A DNA stretch of 64,000 nt from Parcubacteria group bacterium (GTDB lineage: Bacteria > Patescibacteriota > Minisyncoccia > Phycocordibacterales > Phycocordibacteraceae), in the NCBI GenBank assembly GCA_028286605.1, contig JAQBRE010000002.1:60219-124218 (forward strand), in the 5' to 3' direction. A program made the position numbers and the translations under genes. The notes below the pieces were generated by a model. It was not told where the DNA came from. It saw only the letters and a list, made by a program, of their open reading frames with translations, and ran no database searches. Positions 7,100 to 63,876 of this stretch are shown here, in pieces (within the stretch, counting starts at the first letter, position 1; the number at the start of each line of letters is the position of its first letter).

Positions 7100-7108
7100 T
7101 TCTAAACA

Positions 7109-7489: not shown

Positions 7490-7490
7490 A

Positions 7491-33576: not shown

Positions 33577-33816
33577 AAATGCTTATTATTAGGGGTGTGG
33601 ATACTGGGGAAAGAGCATTATCTCTAGTATATACGGTCTGGAATGGGTGTGCTCGTTATTCGGAAGCTGTGGGTACAGGCGTATAAGTCGGGTGTATAAA
33701 CGGGTGCTGGATTTTCTTCCCGAAGTTATCAGTCTTCTCTACCCTGCTTGTCCCCATCCTTGCTACCCCTGTTATCTCCAGCTTCTCCACATCTTTTCCC
33801 CAGAACTTATTCACAC
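33577..33816. promoter_or_regulatory. dnaA-dnaN intergenic region with several DnaA-box-like 9-mers (candidate oriC component)
   Basis: TGTGGATAC at 33596-33604, TTATCTCCA at 33772-33780, TTATTCACA at 33807-33815. Confidence 0.45.
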
Positions 33817-35169: not shown

Positions 35170-35274
35170 GCGGTCATTGTATCTCTGCCTGTGGATAACT
35201 CCAATAATTATGAAGATAGGCCGTTTTGTTGCATGCCAGAGCGCAACCTGTTAGTATCCTGTGTATAACTTCCT
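35170..35274. promoter_or_regulatory. Divergent dnaA / rpmH promoter region containing a perfect DnaA box
   Basis: TGTGGATAA at 35190-35198 and TGTGTATAA at 35259-35267, between divergent dnaA and rpmH. Confidence 0.5.
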
Positions 35275-35427
35275 ATGCCAAAGCGCACCTACCAGCCGAA
35301 GAAGCGTAAGCGCGCACGAACCCACGGATTCCGTGCTCGTTCCGCTACCCCCACCGGACGCCGCGTATTGCTCGCTCGTCGCCGTAAAGGCCGTGCAAGC
35401 CTCACGGTTTCTAAGAAAGTACGCTAA
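35275..35427 (+). CDS. rpmH: 50S ribosomal protein L34
   Basis: [50 protein letters not shown], a 50-aa ORF below the track cutoff. The track ORF 35261..35467 is in the wrong frame. Confidence 0.85.
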
Positions 35428-37696: not shown

Positions 37697-37699
37697 ATG

Positions 37700-38410: not shown

Positions 38411-38413
38411 ACT

Positions 38414-39427
38414 CTATAGACCAAATATACCAAGAGATTTCTTCGCGCCGAACTGAACGGTCATGGAAGTATCTCCGAGCTGGCTAGTATCTGACTGTTT
38501 TGCTTCGAAACCGACTACTGCCGTTCCGGAACCTGCGCCGTTTGAACGAACGGTAATATCCTGCCCTGCCTGACTCGCCACATCATTAACCGTCCAGGTG
38601 AGTGACGGTGAACCGGTGAAGTAATAAGGCACGCCACGGAAGGTATCCTCTGCATCGCTCATAGCGATGGTATCTGGAAGCGCATAGTTGAATAGAGGAC
38701 CAAGGAGCGGATCATTCTGATAGATGCGCACGATAGGGCTTACCGGCGATATGAAAGCAGACGCCTGTGCAACGCCGCTGCTGTCAGGGGTAGCAACCGT
38801 TACGGTAATCGTTGCGTTGCGGTACTGCACGGGAGCTGTCGCAGTGAGTACGGATTTTCCGATGCCTGAATCACTTTCAAGAATCTGGTCACCGTTTTTC
38901 CACGTATACACAAGGCTTGAAGCAGGAACAAGCGCTCCTGATGCGGTGCGCAGGTTTGGTAATGCGACGAGCCGTACAAGGCCTCCAGAGGCCACAAGTG
39001 ATGCTCCGTGATAAAACGGATGCGATGTAGAAACAGGCTCTACGATAAGCGCCACATCAGCGGGGCGAATAACAAGGCTCTGGCTATAAGTCTTTCCATC
39101 GCTGGTAACTGCCACAACTTTGATCGTACTTGCGACGCCCGCGGCACCTGCTTGTACCTGTACGGGCGCTGAGCCACTTCCCTTCTGTATGACTGTTCCA
39201 TTCACAGAAATAGTCACCTGACTTGAAGAAAGGTCGATAAGCGTGCTATCAGGCGTTACGGTAACCGCTTGATAGGGTGCTGGGTACTGTGGGTCGATGG
39301 AAACAGTAAGTGGGTCTGTACCAGCTGGTACTTGCTGAGCGAATACAGGATGAGCGCCTGTAAGAAGGAGTAGGGCTGCAAAGACGAAACCAGCTTTCAT
39401 TGTGTACAGTATAGCGCGTTTGCGCAT
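38414..39427 (-). CDS. Secreted beta-rich protein (Ig-like repeats), T4SS-associated
   Basis: Signal peptide AGFVFAALLLLTGAHPVFA. Repetitive V/T/S-rich beta pattern. Confidence 0.5.
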   Translation of the reverse strand: MRKRAILYTMKAGFVFAALLLLTGAHPVFAQQVPAGTDPLTVSIDPQYPAPYQAVTVTPDSTLIDLSSSQVTISVNGTVIQKGSGSAPVQVQAGAAGVASTIKVVAVTSDGKTYSQSLVIRPADVALIVEPVSTSHPFYHGASLVASGGLVRLVALPNLRTASGALVPASSLVYTWKNGDQILESDSGIGKSVLTATAPVQYRNATITVTVATPDSSGVAQASAFISPVSPIVRIYQNDPLLGPLFNYALPDTIAMSDAEDTFRGVPYYFTGSPSLTWTVNDVASQAGQDITVRSNGAGSGTAVVGFEAKQSDTSQLGDTSMTVQFGAKKSLGIFGL

Positions 39428-39435
39428 GCCACTGC

Positions 39436-39837
39436 TTATGCGGCTCGGGATAGAGGTGGCCTGCGAACGTTATCATTTGCTGCTTTTGCTGCCGATTCCT
39501 TTTCTTCTCCCTTCGCGTCTTGGTCCAGAAGATAGTATGTGGTTCCGAGCTGTATGGTGAGTGCTGGTATAAAATCATCAAGCCCAGGAGCTACATTAAC
39601 AACGCCGTTGACAATAACATTGGCCATTTTCTGCGCAGATCTTTTCCCTCCTATATATTTTGGTCCTACACGAATGAAGAAATAAAGATTCAAAGAAATC
39701 AGACCGAACATCTTTAACGGCCAGCCAAGAAGATCAATGCCAGGTATCCAGCAGATGGCCATGCACGCAAGATCAATCGCAGCCGTGAACATATACAGGA
39801 ACATCTTTTCGATCGAATCGATTTTCCCTGAATCCAT
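39436..39837 (-). CDS. Small polytopic membrane protein, T4SS-associated
   Basis: 133 aa with three hydrophobic segments, immediately downstream of the VirB4 ATPase gene. Confidence 0.5.
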   Translation of the reverse strand: MDSGKIDSIEKMFLYMFTAAIDLACMAICWIPGIDLLGWPLKMFGLISLNLYFFIRVGPKYIGGKRSAQKMANVIVNGVVNVAPGLDDFIPALTIQLGTTYYLLDQDAKGEEKESAAKAANDNVRRPPLSRAA

Positions 39838-39843
39838 AGCGGT

Positions 39844-41667
39844 CTATGCTGAGCCTGCTGCGTCCTGACGCATCTTTTCCTGTTGTATCTGCAGAAGCTG
39901 CGACGGATCGGAGGTGATTATCTGATCTTCTGTATACGAAGCGACTATCTTGATAGCGGCGTGTTTCAAACCGGCGAAGAAGAGGCCCTCCCCCACTCCT
40001 GATTCAAGCAGGAGGTATTTTTCTTCATCAGTAAGACCGAATGTTTCCTGAAGAACGTCCACTGTTGTCGGCGATTGCTTAAGCAGCAGCTGCATCGAAG
40101 AGTTCGTAAGGATCGGACGACCATACGGGCTGCGAAGGAAGTCCTCCACGTCCTGTGTGATAGTGGCGAGACCAAGGAAGTACTTACGACCACGCTTCGC
40201 CAAACTGAATAGAAACGAGGCTGTGTCTTCAGACTTCATCATCCACCACGCCTCATCAATAATGAGCAGGCGTTTCTTCAGTTCATGCCGTACGGAATTC
40301 CATATATAGTGCGTAACGATATACATCGCGACCGGCTTGAGCTCGTCCTCCATGTCACGCACAGAGAACACGACGAACTGATTATTGATATCAACGTTTG
40401 TTGGCTGGTTCAGGAAGCCTGCCCATGTGCCCTTCGTGTATTTCGAAAGACGCTGCACGAGCGAGGTGGAACCCTCCATGCCCGAAAGAACACTTTCGAA
40501 ATCGGAAAGAAGCGGTGGTTCTACGCCGGTGAAATCCGTATCGCCGCTAATATCTTTCAGCGCGTAGGTTTCAGAGATCGCGCGGTCTATGATTGCGTCC
40601 TCTTCCGGCGTGAGGCCGCCGAGCATGATACGGAACAAGCCCACGAGGTTGATGATCGTGCTGCGCAGGATATCTGCAGGGTTTTCGTCCTCACGCACCG
40701 GCGGAAGATCAAATGGATTAATGTGGTTCTCGCTTGAAAGCGAAATATTGAACATCTTGCCGCCGGTTGCCTGTGCAAGGTATTCATATTCACGTTCAGG
40801 ATCGATAACGATAACTTCCGTATCAAACATGAGCGAACGAAGGATTTCCAGTTTCACTGCGTAGGACTTTCCAGAACCAGACTTCGCGAAGACCACGGAG
40901 TTGTAGTTCTCAAGAGAGAAGCGATCAAAGAGGATCAGCGATGCATTGTGACGGTTAATGCCATACAGGATGCCGCGATCACTTGAAAGGTCGAACGAAA
41001 CGAATGGGAAGATGCTAGAAAGCGGGGATGAATTGAGCTTGTTCGTAACGGCGAGCTCATCTATAGCGAGCGGTAGCGTTGAACGGAAGCCTTGTTCCTG
41101 CTGGAACAGTGCGGGTTTCGTATACACGAGCTTTGAATCAAGGATGCCGCGCAAGTCCCCCTCTACCTTGTCTAGCTCTTCTTTCGTAGACGCATACATA
41201 GTGATGTACAGGCCAACTTCGAACAGTTTTTCCTGCGCCTGTTGCAGATTATCGCGCAACGTTTCAAGGTCTTGATATGCCGTATCAAGCATGGGGTCAC
41301 GAACGAGGCCGCGCCCTTCTCGCTCTGCTATCTGGCTCTGTACCTCAGCCACTTTCTTCTGGAAATTACGCAAAGCGTCGGCCGTGTCGATTGGATTAAC
41401 GAATATAGATACGTCGAAGACCTTATCCAGGTTGATGATAGGTGTGAACCAGCCGTCTGAAAGGAATCGAGGATAGGAGATCGTATAAAAGGAACGGGCT
41501 ACCTTCTCACCAAGCTCTATCTCACGTGAGCTCACCTTGAGCGCCGCAGGCGCGATGGTGTCCGCCAGATCAAGCGTACCCTGCGCGTAAATATCTTTCG
41601 GCAGCACTGGCGCAACGACGGGTGCGTCTTCTTTTTTGCCACGGTTTAGGAAGTCGAGAAGTGCCAT
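39844..41667 (-). CDS. VirB4/TraE-type T4SS ATPase (body: region with YPRF...DGWF motif plus ATPase domain)
   Basis: ...SFYTISYPRFLSDGWFTPIINLD...ILYGINRHNASLILFD...VFAKSGSGKSYAVK (Walker A)...LLIIDEAWWMM (Walker B). Layout is typical of Gram-positive-type VirB4. Confidence 0.85.
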   Translation of the reverse strand: MALLDFLNRGKKEDAPVVAPVLPKDIYAQGTLDLADTIAPAALKVSSREIELGEKVARSFYTISYPRFLSDGWFTPIINLDKVFDVSIFVNPIDTADALRNFQKKVAEVQSQIAEREGRGLVRDPMLDTAYQDLETLRDNLQQAQEKLFEVGLYITMYASTKEELDKVEGDLRGILDSKLVYTKPALFQQEQGFRSTLPLAIDELAVTNKLNSSPLSSIFPFVSFDLSSDRGILYGINRHNASLILFDRFSLENYNSVVFAKSGSGKSYAVKLEILRSLMFDTEVIVIDPEREYEYLAQATGGKMFNISLSSENHINPFDLPPVREDENPADILRSTIINLVGLFRIMLGGLTPEEDAIIDRAISETYALKDISGDTDFTGVEPPLLSDFESVLSGMEGSTSLVQRLSKYTKGTWAGFLNQPTNVDINNQFVVFSVRDMEDELKPVAMYIVTHYIWNSVRHELKKRLLIIDEAWWMMKSEDTASFLFSLAKRGRKYFLGLATITQDVEDFLRSPYGRPILTNSSMQLLLKQSPTTVDVLQETFGLTDEEKYLLLESGVGEGLFFAGLKHAAIKIVASYTEDQIITSDPSQLLQIQQEKMRQDAAGSA

Positions 41668-41670
41668 AAA

Positions 41671-42306
41671 TTATGCAGTGAATGAAATAGGGTTTTCCAT
41701 CTCGCCCAAATTGAAGGAACGGTACAGGAGCTCGATGATCTCTTCGGTACCGAGTGGCACAGCACGCAGCCCTGCACTTCCGAGCCCTCCTGCCACCAGC
41801 GCCATACGCTGCTCGAGCTGCACGCGGCTCTCTTCAAAACTCACGTCGACACCCGGTGCTGCAGCAACCGAACTCTTTCCTATTCCCGCAAAGGCACCCT
41901 TAACCGAAACGGCTGCACTGTTCGTTGAATACGGAACCACGATATAGAACGTCTTCGTCATAATGTCCGACCCCTCGATGAAATTACGGATGAACTGAAT
42001 GTATTCACGAAGCTGAATACGCATAAGTTCGCTGGTCTGATGCTCGAGCCGTTCACTCAGCAAGTTCAGATACGGACGAATATCCGTCTTGCGCGAATGG
42101 ATGACGATCTGCACCGTGAAATCGAGCGTATTAAGGAAATTCTGGAACCCGCCGATGATCGCCTTCTGTTCGTCTTCCGATTTCAGCGCGAAGTTAAGCG
42201 AAGAACACATCATGATGCCGCGATAACCGCCCTCCTTAAGGATAACGACACCGTTCCGAACTTCGGAAACCGGTACGAATGCTTGGGTTGGTTTTGGTGT
42301 AGCCAT
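41671..42306 (-). CDS. VirB4 N-terminal region encoded as a separate ORF, in frame with and 3 nt from the downstream ATPase ORF
   Basis: ...VPVSEVRNGVVILKEGGYRGIMMCSSLNFALKSEDEQKAIIGGFQNFLNTLDFTVQIVIHSRKTDIRPYL... resembles the extreme N-terminus of long (about 800-aa) Gram-positive VirB4 proteins. Ends with TAA 41671-41673, followed by TTT and the ATG of the next ORF in the same frame. Confidence 0.6.
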   Translation of the reverse strand: MATPKPTQAFVPVSEVRNGVVILKEGGYRGIMMCSSLNFALKSEDEQKAIIGGFQNFLNTLDFTVQIVIHSRKTDIRPYLNLLSERLEHQTSELMRIQLREYIQFIRNFIEGSDIMTKTFYIVVPYSTNSAAVSVKGAFAGIGKSSVAAAPGVDVSFEESRVQLEQRMALVAGGLGSAGLRAVPLGTEEIIELLYRSFNLGEMENPISFTA

Positions 42307-42307
42307 A

Positions 42308-42724
42308 TTAAAGGGTTTCGGGCGGTTTGGTGTGATCCTGAATATCCAGGGACCATGCAAGATCCTTCAGTTTTCCTTGTGAAAGGCCCAGTTTCTCACG
42401 AACGGGCGCAACAGTAGCCTGAACGATGGCAGGAGTCTCTGATTTCTGCTCTTTTTTCCAAAGATAGAGGCGTCCTCCTGTGTAGTAGATGAAACCTGCT
42501 TCAAGAATATCAAGGAAACTCTTGTTGTTTACCTTATAGAATGCAAGCGCTAATGCGAGGCCCATAATTGGTACGGAAAGCGCTGCGCCGATGATGAATG
42601 GAAGATAGAGAATGAGACCGACGCACATACCGACACCGCCTGCCAGGAATACGAATTGGCGCAGCGTAAGCGGGCCGAATATTTTATTCTCTACTTCGAT
42701 GAACTGAGGAACCTGATACTCCAT
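42308..42724 (-). CDS. PrgI-family (VirB3-like) small T4SS membrane protein
   Basis: MEYQVPQFIEVENKIFGPLTLRQFVFLAGGVGMCVGLILYLP... matches the PrgI-family start (M.Y.VPk...e.kifg.lT.RQ) and two-TM topology. Sits directly upstream of VirB4, as in Gram-positive T4SS. Confidence 0.6.
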   Translation of the reverse strand: MEYQVPQFIEVENKIFGPLTLRQFVFLAGGVGMCVGLILYLPFIIGAALSVPIMGLALALAFYKVNNKSFLDILEAGFIYYTGGRLYLWKKEQKSETPAIVQATVAPVREKLGLSQGKLKDLAWSLDIQDHTKPPETL

Positions 42725-42771
42725 TGCTACGAGTATACCAGTTCGTTGCGCATGCTTCCTTACTCTTGAAC

Positions 42772-43650
42772 TTATTCTGGAGCCTCGCGATACGGATCCA
42801 TGCCGTATTCCTTCACAATTGGCACTGCAGGCGTGTTCGGCGTACTAAATGAAGATGACTGACCGGGAAGATTCGACGGAATCGGCACAGAAGCAGCGCG
42901 TGGCTGATAGGGCGGGATTACTGCGGGCGGAACGAACGCAGGTGCAATCGGCGCGGCAATCGGCATTGGTGGTGCAGGCGGCAAAACAGCGGTAGGAAGA
43001 GTAAATGGAACGCCCGTATTCGGTACGGATGATGTTTGGAATGAGCGTGCGGGCGAGGATGGCTGCCAGGTCGGTTGCGCAGTACGGATCGTCGTCGTTT
43101 CCTGCGGTGCATGAGGATGCTTGGCCATTTCTTTAGCAAGTTCCATATCGTGCACCATAGTACGGATTACCGGTTGTGCCGCAACCGGTGCTACAGGAAT
43201 ACTGGTGGGTGGTGGAGCGAAGGGGGCAGGAGCCGCTGGCGCGAATACCTGCATTGGCGGTGCAACTGGTCGTGCTGGCGCAGGAATAGGGGTACTGGCA
43301 AGAACTGGTGTCACAGAATCCGTACTCTGTTCCTCGTGTTGTAGCTGCTTGAAGACGCGCTCATTCACATCTGTCGTGAGTCCGCGTACCGCAGCATCAG
43401 GAATACCTGCATCACGCAGCTCCTGCACGAACTCATCCGGTGTATACACACCCAACAACATATATAGGTATGAGCGTTCGAACACTCCCGCCTGATCAAT
43501 GCGCAACAAGTATTTTGCACCTAGTTCCGCCGCTACAGCGTCACGCTGAGGACTACGTAGAAAATCTTGCAATGGTTGTGGCAACTCTTGCATCAACACG
43601 GCCATCTGCTCCGCTAAGGTTAGCTCTTCAGGAATCTGATTCTCATCCAT
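42772..43650 (-). CDS. Proline-rich hypothetical protein, T4SS-associated
   Basis: Start moved to MDENQIPEEL (ATG 43648-43650) to avoid overlap with the upstream gene. The C-terminal half is PAxP-rich. Confidence 0.45.
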   Translation of the reverse strand: MDENQIPEELTLAEQMAVLMQELPQPLQDFLRSPQRDAVAAELGAKYLLRIDQAGVFERSYLYMLLGVYTPDEFVQELRDAGIPDAAVRGLTTDVNERVFKQLQHEEQSTDSVTPVLASTPIPAPARPVAPPMQVFAPAAPAPFAPPPTSIPVAPVAAQPVIRTMVHDMELAKEMAKHPHAPQETTTIRTAQPTWQPSSPARSFQTSSVPNTGVPFTLPTAVLPPAPPMPIAAPIAPAFVPPAVIPPYQPRAASVPIPSNLPGQSSSFSTPNTPAVPIVKEYGMDPYREAPE

Positions 43651-43690
43651 TACTGTAGTATCGCTCCTAATGTACATTATTTCCACTGAA

Positions 43691-46036
43691 CTACGCAGCT
43701 GGAGGTGGAGCATCTTCTTCTTTTTGGGCATCTATTGCCTCACTAAGCTTATCGGAAATTTCAGCTTCCTTTGCATTGCCATCACTAATTGCTTTACCCA
43801 AATCCTTAAAAAGGCTTTCAGATTTTGTTTGCTTTAGGCTCCTCTTAATTGCATTTGATGCCTCTCTTTCTGGACGACCAGTGAGGAATCCTGGAACAAA
43901 TGTACGGGCTTTCGAAAGATTATCAGCATATCTTCCCTGACGACTGCTTAGCAATATTTTTCTATCCAGAGCATCTGAATCAACCTTGTATTTCCTCTCT
44001 TCAGCAACTTGCTTGTCGGTAATTTCCTGTAGATCGTTGCTGTATTTGTCAGCGGTTGCAAGATACTCTGCGCGTGATGTCTTGAGTTTGTCTGCATTAC
44101 TTACTAGGGTAGACTTCTGTGCGGTTAGCGCATTTATCTTGGTGCTTGAGATCAATGTTTCCTGTGTTTGGCCTTGTCTGAACAATTCATCATGATTAGC
44201 TGTTTCAGCAGCTATCTCGTTAGTAAGGCGGACATACTCTGGATCCTCTTCACCCGATGCGACCTTCTTTTCAAGATCAGAAATTGAATTCGCATAAGAA
44301 TTTCTGGCATTAACGAGAGAGTCTCTCTTATTCTTACTGTCTGTTTGTGCTGTTTTGTGAGCAGTATCAGTGTTCTTTTTCTGCTCTTTAAGAGCTTTAG
44401 CCTCAGCATCCTCTGTTGGATTTGGTTTAATCGAGTTCGCATAGTCCGTGCGCGCCTTGATATCTTTCTTCTCAATTTCGGCATACCCGCCGGCTGCAGT
44501 TTTGCCAGGCTTACCAAGATCTATCTTTGCAGCCTTGGTAATATTTCCCGCGAACTTGGTTGCGCGAGGATCGAAGCTTGATTTCGCACCCCTATCAGCA
44601 ATCGATGCAAGCCGGCGTCCCATTTCTGTATCAGCAAGTCCTGGAGTATTGCGTATGCTGCGTCCTATAGCAGCAGACCCTGCGCCAACAGTGCGTCGTG
44701 CAACGAATGCACCGCTTCCAAACGCGACGCCGCCCGCTGTCTTTATCGCGAAGTCTGCACCCATAGCACCGAATTTCTTCGCAGCCATAAGCGCCCCAAT
44801 GAGGCCGGCAATAATAAGTAAGAACACCATGATAATTCCCATGTTGTCGGTACCCGGACCGGTCAGTGCACTCGCGAGCCCATTATTATTCGATACTGAT
44901 GAAAAGCCTTCGGTTACCTTAAGATCTATAAAAATCAGCAAGAATAAAATAGGCGCGAAGAATGCCTGATGTATAAGCGTGTTCCACCAGCCTTTCGCTA
45001 TTTTCTCGAGGGGCGGGAGTGCCATTCCAGCGAACCCTATCGGGGAAAGGACGATAAGGCCGGTAAGAACGACGGCGCGCCAGGCAAGCATAAGCGCCGC
45101 CGCTAAAAGAACAACCGTACCGACTATTGAGAACAGCGAAAGGCCGATTAGAACCAAGGCTTTGTTCGTGACCGTAACAGTACCGCCAGTCTTAAGTGCG
45201 TAGATACCAGAAAGTCCGGTTGACTCCATGATGTGTCCGGCAATACCACTATTAATATTGCAGCTAGTCGTTACGCACGGGTCGGTATTTGCCTGTGCGT
45301 ACAGCGCGGAGGTTAGAACGTTGGAAGTATCAATAATTGCTTCTGCAGCGAAGATACTGAAATTCAGAAGTATCGCGAAAATTATGAGCTTCGGTATCGC
45401 TTTCTTGTCTGCAAATTTTCCCGTATCAAGGATAATGCTGATGCCCATAAGTACGAAGCCGAACAGAAGGATCAGATTTCCGATATCGCGCAGTATTCCC
45501 CAAGCAGTAAGGAGGCCTGCAGAATTTCCTATAAGAGTTGAAAATTGGAATACCGTTTTAACTATGACCCAGTTCAGCAATGTTCCTGCAATCGCAAGAA
45601 TAAAGTTCGTGAAGGTAATGATGAATGTCGCCACGACATTCAAGATACAATCTCCTATGTTTGAGATTCCGCAGCCGGTGGTCGCCCCACCTCCTGCAGC
45701 AGGCGCAGGCGCTGCGGCCGCAGGTGTCGTTGCAGTAGGGGCGCCGCCGAATTCAGTCTGCGCAGCCGCAGCGCTTGCATCGATAGCGGCATTGCTTCCA
45801 GTGAAGTTTACGCTGCCGTCAGCGTTAGTGGGTACATCTGATGCAGACAAGTTTGATAATCCAGACGCATCAGGAAGCGTGGCAGTTACGTTTCCAATAC
45901 CAGTCGATGCCGGAGGCGTAGCTGCCGGAGGTGTTGCGGCCTGCGCATGTACAAGCGTTGGTGCGACAACAAAGAGCGCCGCGAACAGCAGCGTTCCTGT
46001 CAGAAGCGAGCGAATTCCTAGAGCGAAAGTTCTCAT
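43691..46036 (-). CDS. VirB6/TrbL-like polytopic T4SS membrane protein with a long C-terminal coiled-coil/hydrophilic domain
   Basis: Signal/TM N-terminus and at least 6 TM helices in the central 350 aa (...FIITFTNFILAIAGTLLNWVIV...). C-terminal 300 aa is K/E/A-rich and predicted helical. Confidence 0.6.
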   Translation of the reverse strand: MRTFALGIRSLLTGTLLFAALFVVAPTLVHAQAATPPAATPPASTGIGNVTATLPDASGLSNLSASDVPTNADGSVNFTGSNAAIDASAAAAQTEFGGAPTATTPAAAAPAPAAGGGATTGCGISNIGDCILNVVATFIITFTNFILAIAGTLLNWVIVKTVFQFSTLIGNSAGLLTAWGILRDIGNLILLFGFVLMGISIILDTGKFADKKAIPKLIIFAILLNFSIFAAEAIIDTSNVLTSALYAQANTDPCVTTSCNINSGIAGHIMESTGLSGIYALKTGGTVTVTNKALVLIGLSLFSIVGTVVLLAAALMLAWRAVVLTGLIVLSPIGFAGMALPPLEKIAKGWWNTLIHQAFFAPILFLLIFIDLKVTEGFSSVSNNNGLASALTGPGTDNMGIIMVFLLIIAGLIGALMAAKKFGAMGADFAIKTAGGVAFGSGAFVARRTVGAGSAAIGRSIRNTPGLADTEMGRRLASIADRGAKSSFDPRATKFAGNITKAAKIDLGKPGKTAAGGYAEIEKKDIKARTDYANSIKPNPTEDAEAKALKEQKKNTDTAHKTAQTDSKNKRDSLVNARNSYANSISDLEKKVASGEEDPEYVRLTNEIAAETANHDELFRQGQTQETLISSTKINALTAQKSTLVSNADKLKTSRAEYLATADKYSNDLQEITDKQVAEERKYKVDSDALDRKILLSSRQGRYADNLSKARTFVPGFLTGRPEREASNAIKRSLKQTKSESLFKDLGKAISDGNAKEAEISDKLSEAIDAQKEEDAPPPAA

Positions 46037-46042
46037 AGGTGG

Positions 46043-47608
46043 TTATATGCTCGTGCTGCAGAGTCCTGAAAGCGTCGTGTAGAGCGAAGTAGTGCTGCCC
46101 ACGGCGGGATTACTTTGTATTTGAGCATCAATACTATCAGTGGTCTGTATATATCCGCCTGTTGTGGTGGCAATAAGGTTCTGGTATTGCGTGGATACCG
46201 CAGCAAGTACTGAAGGATCGGTGGAAGCTGCCGCTGCGTTTGCTGCGGTGCTTATAGTGGTGAGCGCACTGACGGCAGCGTTCCCGCGAGCAATATTCGT
46301 GTTTGACAACGTCAGCGCTGCCGCAACCTTTGGATCAGAGCTTATGCAGCTCCGTGCAATTGATTGGAGTTTCTGCCAATTGGCAAGATATGCTTGCGCC
46401 GTTCCAATATCGTTCGTCACGCTTTGTACGAACCCTGCAGCAAGACCCGGCTGTGCATACTGCGAAGGGTTTGTCGCTTGAGCAAGCGGTGATAGGCCAC
46501 CACCCGCAGAAGGTTGTGAAACACCAGAGAGACCAACGGCGCCCACCACCTGAGTTACGAGCTGGCTTGCAAGCGCGCCAACGATTTCATTTATGGAATT
46601 AGCGAGCTCAAGCTGACGAAGAGGAGATGTGGCCGTTATGCCGAGCGTGTTTTCAATAACCGTACCCGGTGTTCTGATGGAGTTGGAAGTGCAGTTATCT
46701 GCGCTGCTAAGGGACGTTAGGGAGGAGGTGTCGACATTGCTGAGTGAGCCGCCACTGTAATCAACGCTGCCATCAGCGTTAGTGGGAACACTGAGAGGAC
46801 CGTTAAGTGCTGATGGGTCTGTTATTTTTGTCGTTACGGGACCTATACCAGATGAAGTTTTTGATGCGGTGGACGTACAAGAACCACGCCATGACATGAA
46901 GCCCTTTCCCCAGTTCAATTCATTCAAACGATTCGTGGTTGCTGCATAGACCGTCGCATTAAGCGCTTGCTGTTGTGAGTAGGCTGCACCATAAGGATTG
47001 TTCTGATTGTTTCCAACCGCGGCGAACCATGCATTGAAGCCGCCATTCGATGCGAATTTGCCAGCCAGGAAGCCTGCAGGATTATTGCTGAATTGGTTAA
47101 GACTATACCCGCCAGTCACTGATCTTCCGGTGGAACTGTAATACTCGTTGCGCAAACCCTGCGAGACCACATCCTGGAATGGTGACTTCACTCCCCCGCT
47201 CGTATTATTAGCAATCGCATTAAAGAAGCTATTTGCAACCCCATCGCTCACACCCAGAAGATTCTGATTAATGTTCGTTACGAATGAAGGCGAGCCGTTG
47301 AAACCAGAATTAATCCAGGTAATCATACTCTTCGTAATAGCCTGAATAACAGCTTTTGCGACGGCCCACGCAATACCGTTCAATATTTTTGTTATGACTG
47401 TTTGCGCCGTGGTATTACCTGCAGTAATACCAGCAGGGACTGCTGTAGCGCTAATGGCAGCAAGGACAGCAACATCAGTAACCGGAAGCTGCGCATGTGC
47501 GTATTCAACAGAGTCTGGAAGTATAGGAGCAAAACTCAATGTACAAACAAGCATCAAACAGCTAGCCGCAATGCCGAGACGAACGGATGTTTTTCGGTAG
47601 AGGCTCAT
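46043..47608 (-). CDS. Secreted Ala/Ser/Thr/Gly/Asn-rich protein, T4SS-associated
   Basis: Signal peptide LGIAASCLMLVCTLSFAPILP. Shares the peptide VPTNADGSV(D/N)(Y/F)(S/T)G with the adjacent VirB6-like protein. Confidence 0.55.
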   Translation of the reverse strand: MSLYRKTSVRLGIAASCLMLVCTLSFAPILPDSVEYAHAQLPVTDVAVLAAISATAVPAGITAGNTTAQTVITKILNGIAWAVAKAVIQAITKSMITWINSGFNGSPSFVTNINQNLLGVSDGVANSFFNAIANNTSGGVKSPFQDVVSQGLRNEYYSSTGRSVTGGYSLNQFSNNPAGFLAGKFASNGGFNAWFAAVGNNQNNPYGAAYSQQQALNATVYAATTNRLNELNWGKGFMSWRGSCTSTASKTSSGIGPVTTKITDPSALNGPLSVPTNADGSVDYSGGSLSNVDTSSLTSLSSADNCTSNSIRTPGTVIENTLGITATSPLRQLELANSINEIVGALASQLVTQVVGAVGLSGVSQPSAGGGLSPLAQATNPSQYAQPGLAAGFVQSVTNDIGTAQAYLANWQKLQSIARSCISSDPKVAAALTLSNTNIARGNAAVSALTTISTAANAAAASTDPSVLAAVSTQYQNLIATTTGGYIQTTDSIDAQIQSNPAVGSTTSLYTTLSGLCSTSI

Positions 47609-57189: not shown

Positions 57190-57465
57190 CTACTTCTTGA
57201 GACCGAGCTTCTTGATGATGCTGGTGTACTGACGCTTGTTGTTCTTCTCTAGGTAGCGAAGATGTGAGCGGCGGTCTGCAACCATCTGAAGAAGGCCGCG
57301 ACGACTATGAAAATCTTTCTGATTCTTCTTAAGGTGCGCTGTGAGTTCCTCGATTTTACGGGAAAGCAAAGCTACCTGCACGGATGCAGAGCCATTATCG
57401 GTCTCATGGATGGCCGCGTTCTTGATTACTGCGGTCTTTACTCGTTTCGTAAGCATTGGCCTCAT
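57190..57465 (-). CDS. rpsO: 30S ribosomal protein S15
   Basis: ...LTKRVKTAVIK...TDNGSASVQVALLSRKIEELTAHLKKNQKDFHSRRGLLQMVADRRSHLRYL... Confidence 0.9.
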   Translation of the reverse strand: MRPMLTKRVKTAVIKNAAIHETDNGSASVQVALLSRKIEELTAHLKKNQKDFHSRRGLLQMVADRRSHLRYLEKNNKRQYTSIIKKLGLKK

Positions 57466-57620
57466 ACTACCACGCCTTGATTATTTGCGCAAGGGTGGTG
57501 TGGTCCGAAACGCCTCCTCTGTCGGCGGCGCTCCGGGCCGCTCGGCCAAGTCTTACCACCTCCAGACGAGGCATTTCGGACACACTACGTCGTAAAATTA
57601 TCATAGGCTATACTAGATAT

Positions 57621-58544
57621 ATGACTATTGAGGAGTGGAAACGGCAGTTTTTGGAGTATACGGAGATCGAGCGTGGCCGGGCCGTGAAGACTATCGAGAA
57701 TTACGACCACTACCTAAGCCGTTTCTTCGACCAAATGGCTATAAAAGGCCCGAATGACATAACGGAGGAGAAAGTACGTGAATTCCGCCTCTGGCTCAAT
57801 CGTCAGCCCGGTGTTGCGGGCTCCATGAAACGTCGCACCCAGAACTATTACCTGATCGCCCTTCGTGCCTTCCTGAAATTCCTCCGAAAGCGTGGCCAGG
57901 AGAGCCTTTCTCCTGAGGTTATCGAGCTCGCCAAGGTCCCGGAACGTCATCTGGACCTAATATCCCCTGCCGAGCTGGACCGCCTTCTTGCAGCAACAGA
58001 TGGTGCCGACGTAAAATCGTTGCGAGATAAGGCTATTTTGGAGCTTCTCTTCTCCACGGGGCTTCGTGTCTCTGAACTCTGCTCCCTTGATGTCGATCTT
58101 GATCTCACCCGTGATGACTTCCCTATCCGCGGTAAAGGAGACAAAGTGCGCGTCGTATTCCTTTCAGACGAAGCAAAAGATGCGATCCGTAAGTATTTAA
58201 AGGCACGAAAGGATATGGATGAAGCCCTTTTCGTAAATATGCCTCCAATGGCAAGCAAAGATCCAGAGAAAGTCTCTAAGAAAACTCCTACCCGTCTTAC
58301 TCCCCGCTCGGTTGAACGAATGATCAAGATATATGCGGCAAAAGCCGGCATCACGAAGAAAGTAACGCCGCACGTTATGCGTCACTCGTTTGCCACTGAT
58401 TTGCTCAATAATGGAGCTGATATTCGCTCCGTACAACAACTACTTGGCCACGCCTCAATCGTCACCACCCAGATATACACGCACGTTACGGATGCGCATC
58501 TCCGTGAAGTCCACAAGAAATTCCACTCGAAACGCCGGAGCTAA
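57621..58544 (+). CDS. Tyrosine site-specific recombinase, XerC/XerD family
   Basis: Start moved to MTIEEWKRQFLEY (ATG 57621, 6 nt after a TATACT box). C-terminal ...HVMRHSFATDLLNNGADIRSVQQLLGHASIVTTQIYTHV... has the RHRH/Y catalytic signature. Confidence 0.85.
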   Translation: MTIEEWKRQFLEYTEIERGRAVKTIENYDHYLSRFFDQMAIKGPNDITEEKVREFRLWLNRQPGVAGSMKRRTQNYYLIALRAFLKFLRKRGQESLSPEVIELAKVPERHLDLISPAELDRLLAATDGADVKSLRDKAILELLFSTGLRVSELCSLDVDLDLTRDDFPIRGKGDKVRVVFLSDEAKDAIRKYLKARKDMDEALFVNMPPMASKDPEKVSKKTPTRLTPRSVERMIKIYAAKAGITKKVTPHVMRHSFATDLLNNGADIRSVQQLLGHASIVTTQIYTHVTDAHLREVHKKFHSKRRS

Positions 58545-58946: not shown

Positions 58947-59070
58947 AGATATATACGTTAAGAATACAGAATAAGTATAACGTCAAGAATTTACTCGCAA
59001 TACGCGGGTGTGGAAATGATCATTACTAGCAGACTAGGAACCGAATTGGGTTTTGGCGTACAATGGCGGT

Positions 59071-59835
59071 ATGAAAATCGTGTCGTGGAATGTGAATGGA
59101 TTGCGCGCAGTACATCGCAACGGATATTGGCTCCCCTTTTTGAAAGGCGCAAAGCCCGATATATTCTGCTTCCAAGAAGTTAAAGCTGAGCCGGACCAGC
59201 TTCCAGAAGAAGTATTGAATGCAAGTGGATTTTCCGCGTTCTTCGCCCCTTCCAAATTGAAGAAGGGCTATAGCGGCGTTGCTATCTATTCTCGTATTGA
59301 GCCACTCTCGGTTATTTACGGTATGGGAATAAAGGAATTTGATGACGAAGGCAGGCTTGTGGGCGCAGAATACGATGATTTCTGGCTGTTAAATATCTAT
59401 TTCCCTAATGGCGGACGTGGGCCGGATCGTCTTGATTTCAAGCTCCGATACTACGAAGCGTTCTTGGCTTTTTGCGAAGGACTCCGTAAATCAAAGCCGG
59501 TTATATTCTGTGGCGATGTTAATACTGCACACTTCCCTGTTGATCTGGCACGACCTAAAGAGAATGCGAACACAACAGGCTTTCTTCCTATCGAACGCAA
59601 ATGGCTCGATGAGGTTGTAGAAGCTGGCTATGTTGATACGTTCCGTGAAAAGCATCCGCAGCAAAGTGAAGCGTACACATATTGGGATACGTTCACACAT
59701 GCGCGTGAACGAAATGTTGGCTGGCGTATCGATTACTTCTTCGTTGCGAAAGAATTCTTAAAGCACGTTAAGAAAGCGGAGATTCATAGTGATATTTTTG
59801 GCTCAGACCACTGCCCTATTTCAATAACCATCTAA
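59071..59835 (+). CDS. xth: Exodeoxyribonuclease III (AP endonuclease, EEP fold)
   Basis: Start moved to MKIVSWNVNGLRAV (ATG 59071). Ends ...GSDHCPISITI, the Xth/Ape catalytic signature. Confidence 0.9.
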   Translation: MKIVSWNVNGLRAVHRNGYWLPFLKGAKPDIFCFQEVKAEPDQLPEEVLNASGFSAFFAPSKLKKGYSGVAIYSRIEPLSVIYGMGIKEFDDEGRLVGAEYDDFWLLNIYFPNGGRGPDRLDFKLRYYEAFLAFCEGLRKSKPVIFCGDVNTAHFPVDLARPKENANTTGFLPIERKWLDEVVEAGYVDTFREKHPQQSEAYTYWDTFTHARERNVGWRIDYFFVAKEFLKHVKKAEIHSDIFGSDHCPISITI

Positions 59836-59852
59836 CGCAGCATGAGTCGTAT

Positions 59853-59888
59853 AAAGGACATATTGAGTTATCCACTCGCATGTCCTTT
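59853..59888. terminator. Hairpin following xth
   Basis: AAAGGACATattgagttatccactcgcATGTCCTTT, a 9-bp stem. Confidence 0.45.
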
Positions 59889-60114
59889 ACGTTGTCCTTT
59901 ACGGGCGTATGATACGGGAAGAGCGAGGCGGCACAAATCCTGTGAAGGAACTGCCGAACTCGTGTCGGCTGTTCCTTTGGAGATCTTTGTGCCCTATCAG
60001 GCGCTAAACATGTACGGAAACTGACCGACTTAACCTCTAGGAGTTGTCCTAAAATATAAGTGAGTCTGGATCAGATGTTCCACGTGAAAGCGCAGAAGAA
60101 AAACAAAACAAAAT

Positions 60115-60216
60115 AAAGGCCACCCTGAGACAATCAAATTTCTCTGGTGGAGACCACCAAAATTGCCCTGCCCCATATATCGGTCTCTGCCCCAAGATTG
60201 TAGGTGGCCTTTTTCG
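60115..60216 (+). ncRNA. Candidate small structured RNA in the xth-cca intergenic region (speculative; strand unknown)
   Basis: AAAGGCCACC (60115-24) pairs with GGTGGCCTTT (60203-12) and is followed by a T-run. Internal hairpin GGTGGagaCCACC. Flanked by copies of the TTCCACGTGAAA motif. Confidence 0.2.
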
Positions 60217-60260
60217 TACCTGTTCCATGTGAAACGTTCAATATTATAAGGTTTTCATAG

Positions 60261-60296
60261 CAAAACGGCCTGAAATATATATTTCAGGCCGTTTTG
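60261..60296. terminator. Perfect 16-bp palindrome; terminator for cca (minus strand)
   Basis: CAAAACGGCCTGAAATATATATTTCAGGCCGTTTTG, 35 nt downstream of the cca stop. Confidence 0.65.
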
Positions 60297-60330
60297 CTAT
60301 GTTTCACGTGAAAGATTTGAGCTTAAATGG

Positions 60331-61794
60331 CTAGGAAACGTTGTGTTTTGCTAGTATTTTCTGTAATTCCTCCTCTTCCTTCTGCTCAAGCTTCTTTCGG
60401 CCTGAATCGCCCAGTTCCTTAAGCTTTTCATCTGAAAGGGAAATGAGCTCTTTAGTTCGGAAATCAAGGTATTCCTGGGTATTTAGAGCAGGATCTTCCA
60501 GAACGTCATCTAGCAGGGCGTTAAGCATCCAGCCTAGGCGTGGGCCTGGTTCCACATGAAACGCTTCCATAATATGGCTACCGTCTGTTTTTAGAAGTCC
60601 TACGGAGATAGGGTCACGAAGCGCCTCATCAACCATGGCCTTGTACTTACGGAACCTGAATGGCTGTTCCTTTGGGCGGCCGGTACCAATTCGGTCGCAG
60701 ATACGAAGATTGAGCAAATCCCAGATATTCTCTTCGCCAACGTTCCGGATCATACGGCGAACGGCTGAAAGGGTAATCTGGTCTGGATCGCTGAAAAACA
60801 TGTGCCAACGGACCAATTTACTCACTCTTTCAATAGTTTCACGTGAAAACTTCATATTTTCCAAGGCTTTGCGTGTTACACGCGAACCAACCACCTCATG
60901 GCCGTGGAAGGTCCAATCGTTCTTTTCATCAGACCAGCGACGGGTTTCTGGCTTGGAAACGTCGTGGAACACTGCGGCAAGGCGAATATCGAAGGGCCAG
61001 TCCTTATCAGCAGCATGCTGGAGTGCACGCATCAAATGGCCGAATACATCGTAGCTGTGTGCCTGATTCTGTTCTATACCGATTCCACGAGTCAGATCAG
61101 GGGCTATATATTCAAGGATTCCAAGCTGCTGAGCCAGTACGAGGGCCTGCATAGGCTGTTTAGACTCCAATATGCGTACGAACTCATCACGGATTCTTTC
61201 ACGTGAAACATGGCTCAAATTAGGGCCTTTCTCCAGTATTGCGGCTGCCGTATCAGCATCCAGGGCAAATTCTAGCTCTGCAACCAAGCGAACTGCGCGC
61301 ATAAGACGTAACGCATCTTCTTCGAAACGATCAGCAGCAATGCCGACCGTGCGCAGCACCTTCAGTTCGATGTCCTTTTGTCCTTTATAGGGGTCAATCA
61401 ATTGTCCTTTAGACTCATCATAGGCGATGGCGTTCACAGTGAAGTCTCGACGGGCAAGATCCTCCTCAAGATTATCTCCGAAGGTGACTTCATCAGGGCG
61501 GCGCTTATCGGTGTACGCGCTTTCGGTGCGATAGGGAGTTACCTCTATAAGCGCGAGGCGCTCGTCTTCAGAACCGGTCTTAACTCCAACAGTACCGAAA
61601 TCGTTCTCGTAGAAGGATTCAGGGAAGAGACGCTGTATATCTTCAGGCTTCGCATTCGTGGTGAGATCCCAGTCTTTAGGGGTTCGATCAAGCAGCAAAT
61701 CGCGTACGCAGCCGCCCACGAGATATGCCTCGAAACCGCCAGCCCGAAGGCCCTCGGCAACGGTTCGCACCTCGCTTGGAACTCGCATGGTCAT
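60331..61794 (-). CDS. cca: CCA-adding tRNA nucleotidyltransferase with C-terminal HD domain
   Basis: ...YLVGGCVRDLLLDRTPKDWDLTT... polymerase-beta-type head motif and a downstream HD-domain H...HD pattern. Confidence 0.9.
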   Translation of the reverse strand: MTMRVPSEVRTVAEGLRAGGFEAYLVGGCVRDLLLDRTPKDWDLTTNAKPEDIQRLFPESFYENDFGTVGVKTGSEDERLALIEVTPYRTESAYTDKRRPDEVTFGDNLEEDLARRDFTVNAIAYDESKGQLIDPYKGQKDIELKVLRTVGIAADRFEEDALRLMRAVRLVAELEFALDADTAAAILEKGPNLSHVSRERIRDEFVRILESKQPMQALVLAQQLGILEYIAPDLTRGIGIEQNQAHSYDVFGHLMRALQHAADKDWPFDIRLAAVFHDVSKPETRRWSDEKNDWTFHGHEVVGSRVTRKALENMKFSRETIERVSKLVRWHMFFSDPDQITLSAVRRMIRNVGEENIWDLLNLRICDRIGTGRPKEQPFRFRKYKAMVDEALRDPISVGLLKTDGSHIMEAFHVEPGPRLGWMLNALLDDVLEDPALNTQEYLDFRTKELISLSDEKLKELGDSGRKKLEQKEEEELQKILAKHNVS

Positions 61795-61854
61795 TAGGAA
61801 AATACTAGTACGCGCCTCGCCATTCTCCTAGCTCTGGCGTACTATCAATCGCAG

Positions 61855-61929
61855 GCTCCTGTAGTGAAATGGATATCATAACTGACTTCGGATCAGTCGT
61901 TCCAGGTTCGAGTCCTGGCGGGAGCACCA
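61855..61929 (+). tRNA. tRNA-Arg (TCG), CCA encoded
   Basis: GCTCCTG...anticodon stem ACTGA/TCAGT with loop CTTCGGA, T-arm CCAGGTTCGAGTCCTGG, acceptor CGGGAGC-A-CCA. Confidence 0.8.
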
Positions 61930-61977
61930 ACAGTTTTGAGGCGTGCCATGTGAAACATACGGTATAGTGGGGGAATC

Positions 61978-62979
61978 ATGAGCGCTGTTTTGCGAGCATT
62001 CGCCGGGCCGATCATCGTTGCGATCGTTGCTCTTGCCGGCGTATACCTCTGGGGTGGGGGACACGCATTCTATCTGGCAGGCCTGCTGGTATTGCTTGAG
62101 ATAACGCTGTCATTCGATAACGCGGTCGTGAATGCGCAGATTTTGGCGCATATGACGCCGAAGTGGCAGAAGCGCTTCCTGACGTGGGGTATCGCTATCG
62201 CTGTCATTGGTACTCGTTTCCTGTTGCCGATACTTATCGTGAGTGCTGGCGTGGGCGCCTCGCCGCTATTCATCGCGAAGGTCGCCGCATATGATCCTGC
62301 GGAGTACGGACGCTTGCTCGATGGTGCGCGTCACGCCATCTCGGCATTCGGCGGTATCTTCCTGCTTATGGTGTCCTTGAAGTACTTCTTTGATGACAAT
62401 AAGAAAGTGCACTGGATCCGCGTTATTGAACGCTTCGTTGCGGGGTGGGGAAAGATAGAGTCTATAGAAATCGCCATATGCCTCGTGGTGCTTGCTGGCT
62501 TAGCGCTCCTGCTGCCCGCACAAGCCTCGACAATCCTTCTTGCAGGAATAGTGGGCATCGTACTGTTTGTCGCCGTCCAGGGCATTGCTAGTGCCTTTAC
62601 GAAGGATGCTGAGGCAGCGGTGGGAACGGGAAGCGTCGCGCTTTTCATATACCTGAACGTTCTGGATGCTGCGTTCTCGCTAGATGGTGTCGTGGGCGCC
62701 TTCGCGCTTACGAATGAACTCGTGCTTATCGTCATTGGCTTGGGTATCGGTGCCTATTTCGTTCGTTCGTTGACGCTGTATCTGGTACGCCGGAGGACGC
62801 TCGAGGCTCTGATGTATCTTGAGCATGGAGCGCACTGGGCAATACTGGCATTGGCGATAGCGCTTATTACGAGCATCTTCGTTACGGTGCCGGATATCAT
62901 TACAGGTTCTGTTGGCTTGATATTCGTTGGGGCGGCATATTATTCATCGGTACAGTTAGCTCGAAAGGGAAGCGTGTAA
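61978..62979 (+). CDS. TerC/DUF475-family integral membrane protein
   Basis: ...LLEITLSFDNAVVNAQIL... hallmark TerC-family motif, about 9 TM segments, 333 aa. Confidence 0.75.
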   Translation: MSAVLRAFAGPIIVAIVALAGVYLWGGGHAFYLAGLLVLLEITLSFDNAVVNAQILAHMTPKWQKRFLTWGIAIAVIGTRFLLPILIVSAGVGASPLFIAKVAAYDPAEYGRLLDGARHAISAFGGIFLLMVSLKYFFDDNKKVHWIRVIERFVAGWGKIESIEIAICLVVLAGLALLLPAQASTILLAGIVGIVLFVAVQGIASAFTKDAEAAVGTGSVALFIYLNVLDAAFSLDGVVGAFALTNELVLIVIGLGIGAYFVRSLTLYLVRRRTLEALMYLEHGAHWAILALAIALITSIFVTVPDIITGSVGLIFVGAAYYSSVQLARKGSV

Positions 62980-63042
62980 GCAGAAGTGATGCAGGTATCG
63001 TTCTAGCGTCTTGCCCGCGGGGATGCTATTATCGGCCCTGAA

Positions 63043-63113
63043 GCGGATATGGTTTAGTGGTAAAACGCGTCCTTGCCAAGGACGAGTCGGGAGTTCGATT
63101 CTCCCTATCCGCA
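63043..63113 (+). tRNA. tRNA-Gly (GCC)
   Basis: GCGGATATGGTTTAGTGGTAAAAC... anticodon stem CGTCC/GGACG with loop TTGCCAA, T-arm GGGAGTTCGATTCTCCC. CCA not encoded. Confidence 0.9.
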
Positions 63114-63144
63114 CCGAAAGGGAATTGGGCGTGGAAACAGGAAG

Positions 63145-63182
63145 ATATCAAAAGGACGGCCGAAAGGCCGTCCTTTTGATAT
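63145..63182. terminator. Rho-independent terminator after tRNA-Gly
   Basis: ATATCAAAAGGACGGCCgaaaGGCCGTCCTTTTGATAT. Confidence 0.6.
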
Positions 63183-63295
63183 GTGAAAAACAGGGGATAA
63201 GTCTGTGCATAGTGGGGATAAAGGACAGGGAATTCAGAAGTTCTTTAGAACTATTTTAAATAATCTTCAGTACCTAGGCTGTATTATTCAAGGTC

Positions 63296-63691
63296 GTGGA
63301 CTTTAGTATTTCTTCACGTAAAGACATCGGGAATCACGGCGAATCGGTCGCCGTGGAGTATTTAAGACGTCTTGGTTTTAGAATCCTTGGGAGAAACATC
63401 GCTTTCAAGACAGGGGAGTTGGATATCGTTGCGCAAAAGGGAAGCGTGGTGCACATAGTAGAAGTGAAGACGCTGCTATGCCAGGATTTTCCTGACGCAA
63501 GAAGATCTCAGGATCGATATGATCCGGCAGACAATCTGAGTATCCATAAACTGCGGAAGGTAACACGAACGGCAGAATGGTATCTGGCTCAGAAAGGTTG
63601 GGAAGGGGAGTGGCAGATAGACGGGGCATTAGTATGGTTACGCGCGCACGATGGAGTCGCTCGCGTACGGTATTTGCCGCAGGTGGGCTAA
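63296..63691 (+). CDS. yraN: YraN/UPF0102-family predicted endonuclease
   Basis: GTG start. ...IGNHGESVAVEYLRRLGFRILGRNIAFKTGELDIVAQKGSVVHIVEVKT... matches the UPF0102 core. Confidence 0.7.
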   Translation: MDFSISSRKDIGNHGESVAVEYLRRLGFRILGRNIAFKTGELDIVAQKGSVVHIVEVKTLLCQDFPDARRSQDRYDPADNLSIHKLRKVTRTAEWYLAQKGWEGEWQIDGALVWLRAHDGVARVRYLPQVG

Positions 63692-63749
63692 AATTTAAAA
63701 TCTGGTAGGATGCATCTACGCGGGCCTACGGCCCGCGAACAAGACACCT

Positions 63750-63820
63750 CGGGGTGTCGTATACCGGTAGTACGACTGGTTTGGGACCAGTTAGACGGGG
63801 TTCAATTCCCCGCACCCCGA
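63750..63820 (+). tRNA. tRNA-Pro (TGG)
   Basis: CGGGGTG...anticodon stem ACTGG/CCAGT with loop TTTGGGA, T-arm CGGGGTTCAATTCCCCG, acceptor CACCCCG-A. Preceded by hairpin CGCGGGCCtacGGCCCGCG. Confidence 0.75.
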
Positions 63821-63876
63821 CAAAATTGAGACTTCTTCACATGTTTCGCAGTTCGATAGGGTAGTATCAACTACTT

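Follow-up and report, generated by a model that had tools for sequence, protein, structure and literature searches.

Close to the right-hand end of a 64,000-nucleotide stretch of DNA from a Parcubacteria group bacterium (contig JAQBRE010000002.1 of assembly GCA_028286605.1, positions 60,219 to 124,218; hereafter the window, in whose numbering coordinates are given) lies cca, the gene for the CCA-adding enzyme, in the order xth-like gene, cca, tRNA-Arg, DUF475/TerC gene, tRNA-Gly, yraN and tRNA-Pro. The coding sequence of cca and the spacer that separates it from the convergent xth-like gene carry an array of a short repeated palindrome, which is, judged by its sequence, the standard bacterial centromere sequence parS. 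The organism is a Parcubacteria/Paceibacteria bacterium of the candidate phyla radiation (CPR). Its CCA enzyme shares 91% identity with that of Parcubacteria bacterium C7867-007 and 88% with that of C7867-008. The Genome Taxonomy Database (GTDB) places the genus C7867-001 in Patescibacteria; Paceibacteria; UBA9983_A; UBA2163 (PMC8357290). The genome sizes of the relatives range from 0.56 to 0.81 Mb (PMC4508563), and the source contig has a length of 532,551 bp.

Sites were called as 16-mers with no more than three mismatches to TGTTNCACGTGAAACA. Eight such sites, each with one to three mismatches, lie between positions 60076 and 61957 (Table 1), that is within 1.9 kb and at a density of about four sites per kb: four in the open reading frame (ORF) of cca, three in the 3' spacer and one weak copy upstream. 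The 12-mer TTYCAYRTGAAA is found six times (60078, 60223, 60302, 60550, 60837 and 61197), compared to 0.02 expected occurrences. Counted by strand, there are 14 hits with up to three mismatches in the window compared to 1.23 expected, and none of the shuffled sequences reached this number. The remaining 62 kb of the window contain no 16-mer with three or fewer mismatches, and no parS site is present in the 8 kb by which the Logan contig L081 (SRR13312974), which overlaps window positions 1 to 5112 at 100% identity, extends beyond the window. The first-pass annotation of this stretch had described a palindrome recurring eight times over 3.8 kb, a clustering beyond chance and the absence of good copies from the other 60 kb. 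The clustering of a real palindrome and the emptiness of the rest of the window hold; the extent does not, since the copy in reverse orientation at 63835 has six mismatches and is indistinguishable from background, and the weaker match at 63313, also with six, is at background level (64 positions of the window have five mismatches to TGTTNCACGTGAAACA). Furthermore, the site at 60874-60889 with its two mismatches had been overlooked, and several coordinates were one base off. It is uncertain whether the site at 61942 belongs to the array, because it lies inside an insertion of about 20 bp (61936-61957), which C7867-007 and C7867-008, the two closest relatives, lack.

The sequence TGTTNCACGTGAAACA is the consensus of chromosomal parS, the site at which ParB (Spo0J) binds and is loaded in 'the vast majority' of bacterial chromosomes (PMC7022226). 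The consensus of 188 intergenic copies from 81 genomes, the source genome and 80 relatives, reads tGTTYCACGTGRAACa and equals the published one. Positions 3 to 14 are conserved to 91-99%, except for a T/C wobble at positions 5 and 12, which corresponds to the N of the published consensus; the outer positions are less well kept (69% at positions 2 and 15, 44% at positions 1 and 16), and directly beyond the 16 bp the base composition is random. The palindrome, which had been said at first pass to match no well-characterized bacterial operator, thus has the sequence of the best-characterized bacterial centromere (PMC7022226). When applied to an actinobacterial contig (L094) as a control of the method, the same scan finds two near-perfect parS sites beside a canonical parAB locus. 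On this control contig, cca is also located in the oriC/parAB neighborhood (dnaA-yidC-jag-parA-parB...murJ-cca; L094 coordinates 5712-6597 and 16485-16960); the two near-perfect sites lie upstream of parA, and none is found in the part of cca that is present. LexA/Cheo boxes, Rex sites, CRP/FNR-type sites and dif were ruled out on sequence.

For comparison, the cca loci of 80 species representatives were used, with up to 10 kb of flanking sequence on each side and a CCA identity of 70-91%. With up to two mismatches, 130 sites are found in cca and 103 in the 500 bp 3' of it, none in the 500 bp upstream and a single one in the remaining 1.16 Mb. With up to three mismatches, 438 sites are located in the 164 kb comprising cca plus 600 bp (2.67 per kb) and 27 in the 1.19 Mb of flanks, in which the 500 bp upstream are included (0.023 per kb, which is about the random expectation), a 117-fold difference in density. 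Between 2 and 10 sites (median 6) are present in cca plus 600 bp at each of the 78 loci with enough flank. The intragenic copies occupy four fixed positions of cca, nt 585, 906, 945 and 1232, which have three or fewer mismatches in 52, 54, 65 and 70 of the 81 genomes, respectively. The site at nt 906, the ortholog of the one at 60874, has no more than two mismatches in 49/81 genomes and is, at this threshold, the best-scoring site in the largest number of relatives. The element is real, localized and conserved: two ways in which it might have dissolved, a motif that is common throughout the genome or sites that lack counterparts at orthologous positions, had been named at first pass, and the background density of the flanks and the retention of the sites, with constrained synonymous positions, speak against both. 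The genes that follow cca on its 3' side (xth, a XerC/D-like recombinase and others) are likewise kept in order, as is the length of the xth-cca spacer, whereas a TerC gene is present at only 2 of the 80 related loci and is therefore regarded as a recent insertion beside the array.

Inside cca, the sites at nt 585, 906 and 945 are read in one register, xxT GTT TCA CGT GAA ACA, and the site at nt 1232 in a second one, F-H-V-K; the third frame of parS contains TGA and hence is unusable in a coding sequence. Serine at the sites is encoded by TCA in 85-98% of the genomes (19% gene-wide), arginine by CGT in 70-97% (25% gene-wide), glutamate by GAA in 91% (48% gene-wide) and valine at nt 1232 by GTG in 100% (25% gene-wide). 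For four- and six-fold degenerate codons, the mean fraction of the top codon is 0.72 inside and 0.42 outside the sites (Mann-Whitney p = 1.8e-6), and pairwise identity at fourfold degenerate third positions is 0.62 inside and 0.32 outside, the latter value indicating that synonymous sites are otherwise near saturation. Since the choice among synonymous codons at the sites follows the parS sequence, it is the DNA and not the protein that is under selection. Solved CCA enzymes have the peptide H-I-S-V-E-R and the clade H-V-S-R-E-R; to judge from these sequences, a pre-existing CCA peptide was apparently adapted to accommodate the DNA site. That a protein motif does not explain the intragenic sites had already been proposed in the first-pass annotation, on the grounds that three of them lie in different codon registers. 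The proposal is borne out by codon usage; the argument, however, is weak, because three of the four intragenic sites share a register, only the fourth being in another, and the third frame contains TGA. A further conserved element of cca is TCTAAAGGACA at 61403-61413 (minus strand; cca nt ~382-392), whose synonymous positions (TCT, AAA, GGA) are 95-98% conserved in the 81 genomes; it is not parS and looks Shine-Dalgarno-like (AAAGGA).

The array is located about 25 kb from dnaA and the probable oriC, the proximity to the origin that is expected of parS. dnaN, dnaA, rnpA and yidC lie at 32.5-36.5 kb of the window, and the cumulative GC skew has its minimum at ~32-40 kb. In addition to the two DnaA boxes of the dnaA-rnpA intergenic region (Table 1), three boxes with one mismatch are found at 33596-33815 in the dnaA-dnaN spacer. 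The distance between cca and dnaA amounts to 25-43 locus tags in eight published Parcubacteria genomes (PMC4508563 supplement). A gene for a XerC/XerD-type tyrosine recombinase (57456-58544) recurs in 66 of the 80 relatives at a distance of 2-4 kb from the array; because of this conserved position, the recombinase is placed near the origin and not the terminus.

Table 1. Palindromic sites and surrounding features in the window.
Feature	Sequence	Position	Strand	Remarks
parS-like site	TGTTCCACGTGAAAGC	60076..60091	.	2 mismatches; xth-cca spacer
parS-like site	TGTTCCATGTGAAACG	60221..60236	.	2 mismatches; xth-cca spacer
parS-like site	TGTTTCACGTGAAAGA	60300..60315	.	1 mismatch; 15 bp past the cca stop codon
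Intragenic parS-like site		60548..60563	.	3 mismatches; cca nt 1232; F-H-V-K/E codon register
Intragenic parS-like site	12-bp core TTTCACGTGAAA intact	60835..60850	.	3 mismatches; cca nt 945; F-S-R-E-T register
Intragenic parS-like site	TGTTACACGCGAACCA	60874..60889	.	2 mismatches; cca nt 906; G-S-R-V-T register
Intragenic parS-like site	TCTTTCACGTGAAACA	61195..61210	.	1 mismatch; cca nt 585; V-S-R-E-R register
Weak parS-like site	CGTGCCATGTGAAACA	61942..61957	.	3 mismatches; between tRNA-Arg and the TerC-like gene
xth-like gene		59053-59835	+	cca neighbor
xth-cca convergent spacer		59836..60330	.	~0.5 kb; three sites; same spacer in relatives has 2.6 sites/kb
cca		60331..61794	-	CCA-adding enzyme with HD domain, 487 aa; carries four sites
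DUF475/TerC gene		61978-62979	+	follows tRNA-Arg
dnaA		33817..35169	-	origin-region marker, ~25 kb from the array
dnaA-rnpA intergenic region		35170..35426	.	probable oriC; one perfect and one 1-mismatch DnaA box

Two further inverted repeats are found in the xth-cca spacer. A perfect 40-nt inverted repeat, AGCAAAACGGCCTGAAATATATATTTCAGGCCGTTTTGCT, occupies 60260-60299 between the convergent genes, abuts the parS site at 60300 and is probably a bidirectional terminator. The rest of the spacer (59836-60220) contains a long-range inverted repeat, GGCCACC...GGTGGCC, at ~60119-60212, for which there is no Rfam match; a search of the region from 58.5 to 64 kb against Rfam returned only tRNAs and spurious miRNA-like matches on the hairpin.

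We consider it likely, with a probability of roughly 0.8, that the repeats are chromosomal parS sites, which form an origin-proximal array at which a clamp of the ParB family is loaded and marks the origin region. From the nature of the sites we infer that dimers of a ParB-family, cytidine triphosphate (CTP)-dependent DNA clamp would load at each palindrome, slide to the neighboring DNA and build a single origin-proximal partition complex, which would mark the origin region and recruit SMC-ScpAB, probably without ParA, as in Streptococcus pneumoniae (PMC7022226). The genes for SMC, ScpA and ScpB are present in C7867-007 and C7867-008 (Nelson & Stegen ortholog table). Placed half within an essential ORF that evolves slowly and otherwise in the 3' spacer, the centromere would be compact and hard to lose.

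The source genome encodes a ParB-family protein of 349 amino acids, MDB5265357.1, at positions 2533-3582 of L081, which is ~4.5-5.5 kb to the left of the window start and ~40 kb from oriC. On TIGR00180 it reaches 123 bits, above the cut-off of 58, and the Noc and ParB models of NCBIfam give it about equal scores. Its identity to Spo0J is 32%, and the model predicted by AlphaFold (mean predicted local distance difference test, pLDDT, 78.5) matches structures of ParB, Noc and KorB. The protein continues with a coiled-coil and ends in an invariant three-helix domain (W...RPSD..L..LGRT..AIR.MR), which looks Myb-like by eye and has no match in Pfam. This divergent ParB has 52 full-length homologs with 38-67% identity in metagenome-assembled genomes (MAGs) of Parcubacteria, Kaiserbacteria, Nomurabacteria and Magasanikbacteria. 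At every locus for which the upstream gene was called (none was called at L093), parB is preceded by a translationally coupled gene for a protein of 290-360 amino acids that consists of 4-5 PF18780 HNH_repeat units; in the source genome, the two-gene module occupies L081 positions 2533-4640, ~4.5-6.6 kb to the left of window position 1. The gene pair is set among varied housekeeping genes and in one case directly follows an SMC-like gene. None of the divergent parB genes of this family has a parS site nearby, and a search for a separate operator near the parB operon yielded only the short hairpin GGTTCTTTGAGAACC, which is present in two close loci and not conserved. The assemblies with a divergent ParB do not coincide with any of the 80 cca assemblies. 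A metagenome scan with P0241 found two loci, which added nothing new, and exact-match look-ups of P0241 and of the CCA protein returned no record. Queries for CPR ParB made from B. subtilis Spo0J and from a hand-made consensus matched only Firmicutes. Near-canonical matches to the divergent ParB were set aside; their representative, P0314, is actinobacterial and served solely as a positive control.

A COG1475 (ParB family) gene is listed for 13 of 17 Parcubacteria, including C7867-001 to C7867-006, in which it is located between miaA and dprA/serS (Nelson & Stegen ortholog table), and according to a survey from 2025, most CPR orders have a chromosomal parB in over 89% of their species, but the Paceibacterales in only 19%; UBA9983_A, the order to which the clade belongs, is unlisted there. 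A row for COG1192 (ParA) is absent from the former table (Nelson & Stegen ortholog table); ParA, however, is not obligatory for the function of parS, as the case of S. pneumoniae illustrates (PMC7022226).

Several observations weigh against the assignment of the array to a ParB-parS system. Neither ParB nor ParA was found by phmmer, nor ParB by a profile search with --max, among 4125 ORFs of the window and the 80 cca loci with 10 kb on each side; the Spo0J and Soj queries used were validated on loci with such genes, and the ParA query on L094. A Pfam scan of the ~50 window ORFs was negative for both proteins as well. A canonical ParB did not turn up in the 72 kb of the source genome examined (window and L081), nor did ParA in the window, L081, the 80 cca loci and the surroundings of every divergent parB. 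COG1475 is left empty for C7867-007 and C7867-008, the two closest relatives (Nelson & Stegen ortholog table). The only ParB-family protein found in the source genome is non-canonical, with GSRRLRSA where ParB has GERRxRA, and does not have the N-terminal ParA-binding motif LG[KR]GL; its gene is ~65 kb away from the array, with no parS site near it. In ungapped alignments to solved ParBs, it keeps only two of the eight residues that contact parS in Caulobacter (K171 and G201, Caulobacter numbering), while Q162, G170, S172, R173, N178 and R204 are replaced. R173 and G201 show absolute conservation among ParB orthologs, and R173 bonds with guanine 1 of the half-site (PMC7383237). Moreover, the recognition helix varies within the divergent ParB family while the sites do not. 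Finally, the confinement of the sites to the origin region holds for the sequence available, namely the window, L081 and the flanks of the relatives, and this scope also has to be counted on the negative side.

It is tempting to speculate that the lineage has no canonical ParB and that its parS array is read by a GSRR-type, ParB-like clamp together with the co-encoded HNH_repeat protein, a proposal that we put forward tentatively and at somewhat less than even odds. In such a system, the Myb-like domain would replace the usual dimerization domain, and the HNH_repeat protein would take the place of ParA. If this were true, it would represent a ParB-parS system that has been rewired, its ancient centromere sequence having survived while the mode of recognition changed, and the divergent ParB and its HNH-repeat partner, if they are the readers, would become a test case for the re-encoding of ParB specificity and for ParA-free segregation in ultra-small cells.

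The replacement of six of the eight canonical contact residues and the variable recognition helix of the sole ParB homolog seen, together with the presence of a co-encoded repeat protein of putative DNA-binding modules, could also mean that the palindromes are genuine, selected DNA sites with a reader from outside the ParB family, either the HNH_repeat protein with its 4-5 units or another helix-turn-helix factor, and that the array serves nucleoid organization or replication control and not a ParB-type partition. We regard this as unlikely, as the sequence is identical over 14-16 bp to a site that is read by ParB across bacterial phyla and its dyad symmetry suits a dimeric helix-turn-helix protein; we know of no example of a non-ParB reader of the parS sequence. 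Lower still is the chance that a transcription factor controls cca, xth and/or the TerC-like gene from an operator array, as had been suggested at first pass for cca and TerC. One weak copy, at 61942, does lie in the divergent cca/TerC promoter region, but in the insertion that the closest relatives lack; the 500 bp upstream of cca are devoid of sites with up to two mismatches in the 80 relatives, where all sites lie within the ORF or on its 3' side. Only two of these loci have TerC. The positions of the sites already largely refute an operator.

A role of the palindromes at the level of RNA hairpins or DNA cruciforms, be it as terminators, repetitive extragenic palindromic (REP)-like elements or mRNA stability elements, is very improbable, even though the sites are palindromic and one of them abuts the strong hairpin at 60260-60299. 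The CACGTG center, the would-be loop, is conserved more strongly than any other part, there is no Rfam family match, and compensatory covariation is absent: the two halves of the palindrome vary independently, and combinations able to pair do not exceed, at the variable symmetric positions, the number expected under independence (64 observed and 82 expected for positions 5/12). We give equally little credit to the idea that a CCA peptide motif, the local composition or a dispersed uptake or restriction word produces the sites as a by-product. Three intragenic sites do share a frame and encode x-S-R-E/V-x, and the 'S-x-E-R' of the first site is present in solved CCA enzymes, too; however, the synonymous positions are constrained toward parS, nearly half of the copies are intergenic and the flanks are at background density, whereas an uptake or restriction signal, another of the earlier suggestions, would be dispersed. 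The by-product explanation is already refuted by the codon and distribution tests. Among the four candidates between which the first-pass annotation made no choice, the 'recombination or partition-type site cluster' was the right one.

The site itself is of a known kind; a literature search found no published account of parS or ParB biology in Patescibacteria. Unusual features are the density of ~4 sites per kb, a conservation within cca that holds codon for codon across at least 80 species, the distance between the array and parB, and the fact that ParA is apparently missing while the ParB has a non-canonical DNA-reading surface. The locus provides the Patescibacteria, a large group without cultivated members, with a sequence-defined centromere and with a landmark of the origin region that is useful for the curation of MAGs, and the array in cca is a clean natural case of a DNA-binding code laid over a protein code, in which the synonymous constraint can be measured.

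Three other parts of the sequence were noted in passing. A low-GC island (0.44-0.49), which comprises window positions 1-5107 and L081 positions 4000-8062 and adjoins tRNA-His and tRNA-Leu, codes for a HerA/DUF87-type ATPase, an Imm26-like protein, unannotated ORFs and a large serine recombinase, and probably is an integrated mobile or defense element. A type IV secretion-like cluster at 36485-47608, with a pilin, a VirB4/TraG-type ATPase and several large ORFs without Pfam match, adjoins yidC and oriC. The ORF at 9712-10461 combines RuvX, which is Holliday-junction resolvase-like, with a C-terminal tRNA_bind domain, an unusual fusion.

Among the known systems, the Noc-binding sites (NBS) are 16-bp palindromes as well and are read by a ParB paralog. 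They are dispersed over the chromosome and avoid the terminus. NBS differ from parS at half-site positions 1 and 6 (PMC7383237): tATTTCCCGGGAAATa has A at position 1 and C at position 6, whereas the sites described here have G and A. An assignment to NBS therefore failed, with G in 69% of the copies at position 2 of the 16-mer, a CACGTG core and a tight clustering instead of a dispersed distribution. In Pseudomonas aeruginosa (parS1-4) and Corynebacterium glutamicum (10 sites), several parS sites beside oriC form one nucleoprotein complex (PMC7022226), and in P. aeruginosa a single parS can suffice (PMC7022226). Compared to these arrays, the present one is denser, with ~4 sites per kb, and is anchored in one housekeeping coding sequence. 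S. pneumoniae resembles the organism studied here in its small genome, its few origin-proximal parS sites, the lack of parA and the link to SMC loading (PMC7022226); however, pneumococcal ParB is canonical, whereas the candidate ParB described here is divergent and co-encoded with an HNH_repeat protein.

The parS/Spo0J system of B. subtilis shares with the present array the same 16-bp palindrome, TGTTNCACGTGAAACA, and its position close to the origin. In B. subtilis, too, several sites lie within genes, including one inside spo0J itself. Of the 10 parS sites of B. subtilis, 8 lie in the ori domain (PMC7022226), and they are spread over hundreds of kb, whereas eight sites are packed into 1.9 kb here. 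In contrast to B. subtilis, the sites lie in and behind cca and not in or near parB, soj/parA was not found in the window, L081 or the 80 loci, and the sole ParB homolog found reads DNA, if it does so, with a non-canonical surface.

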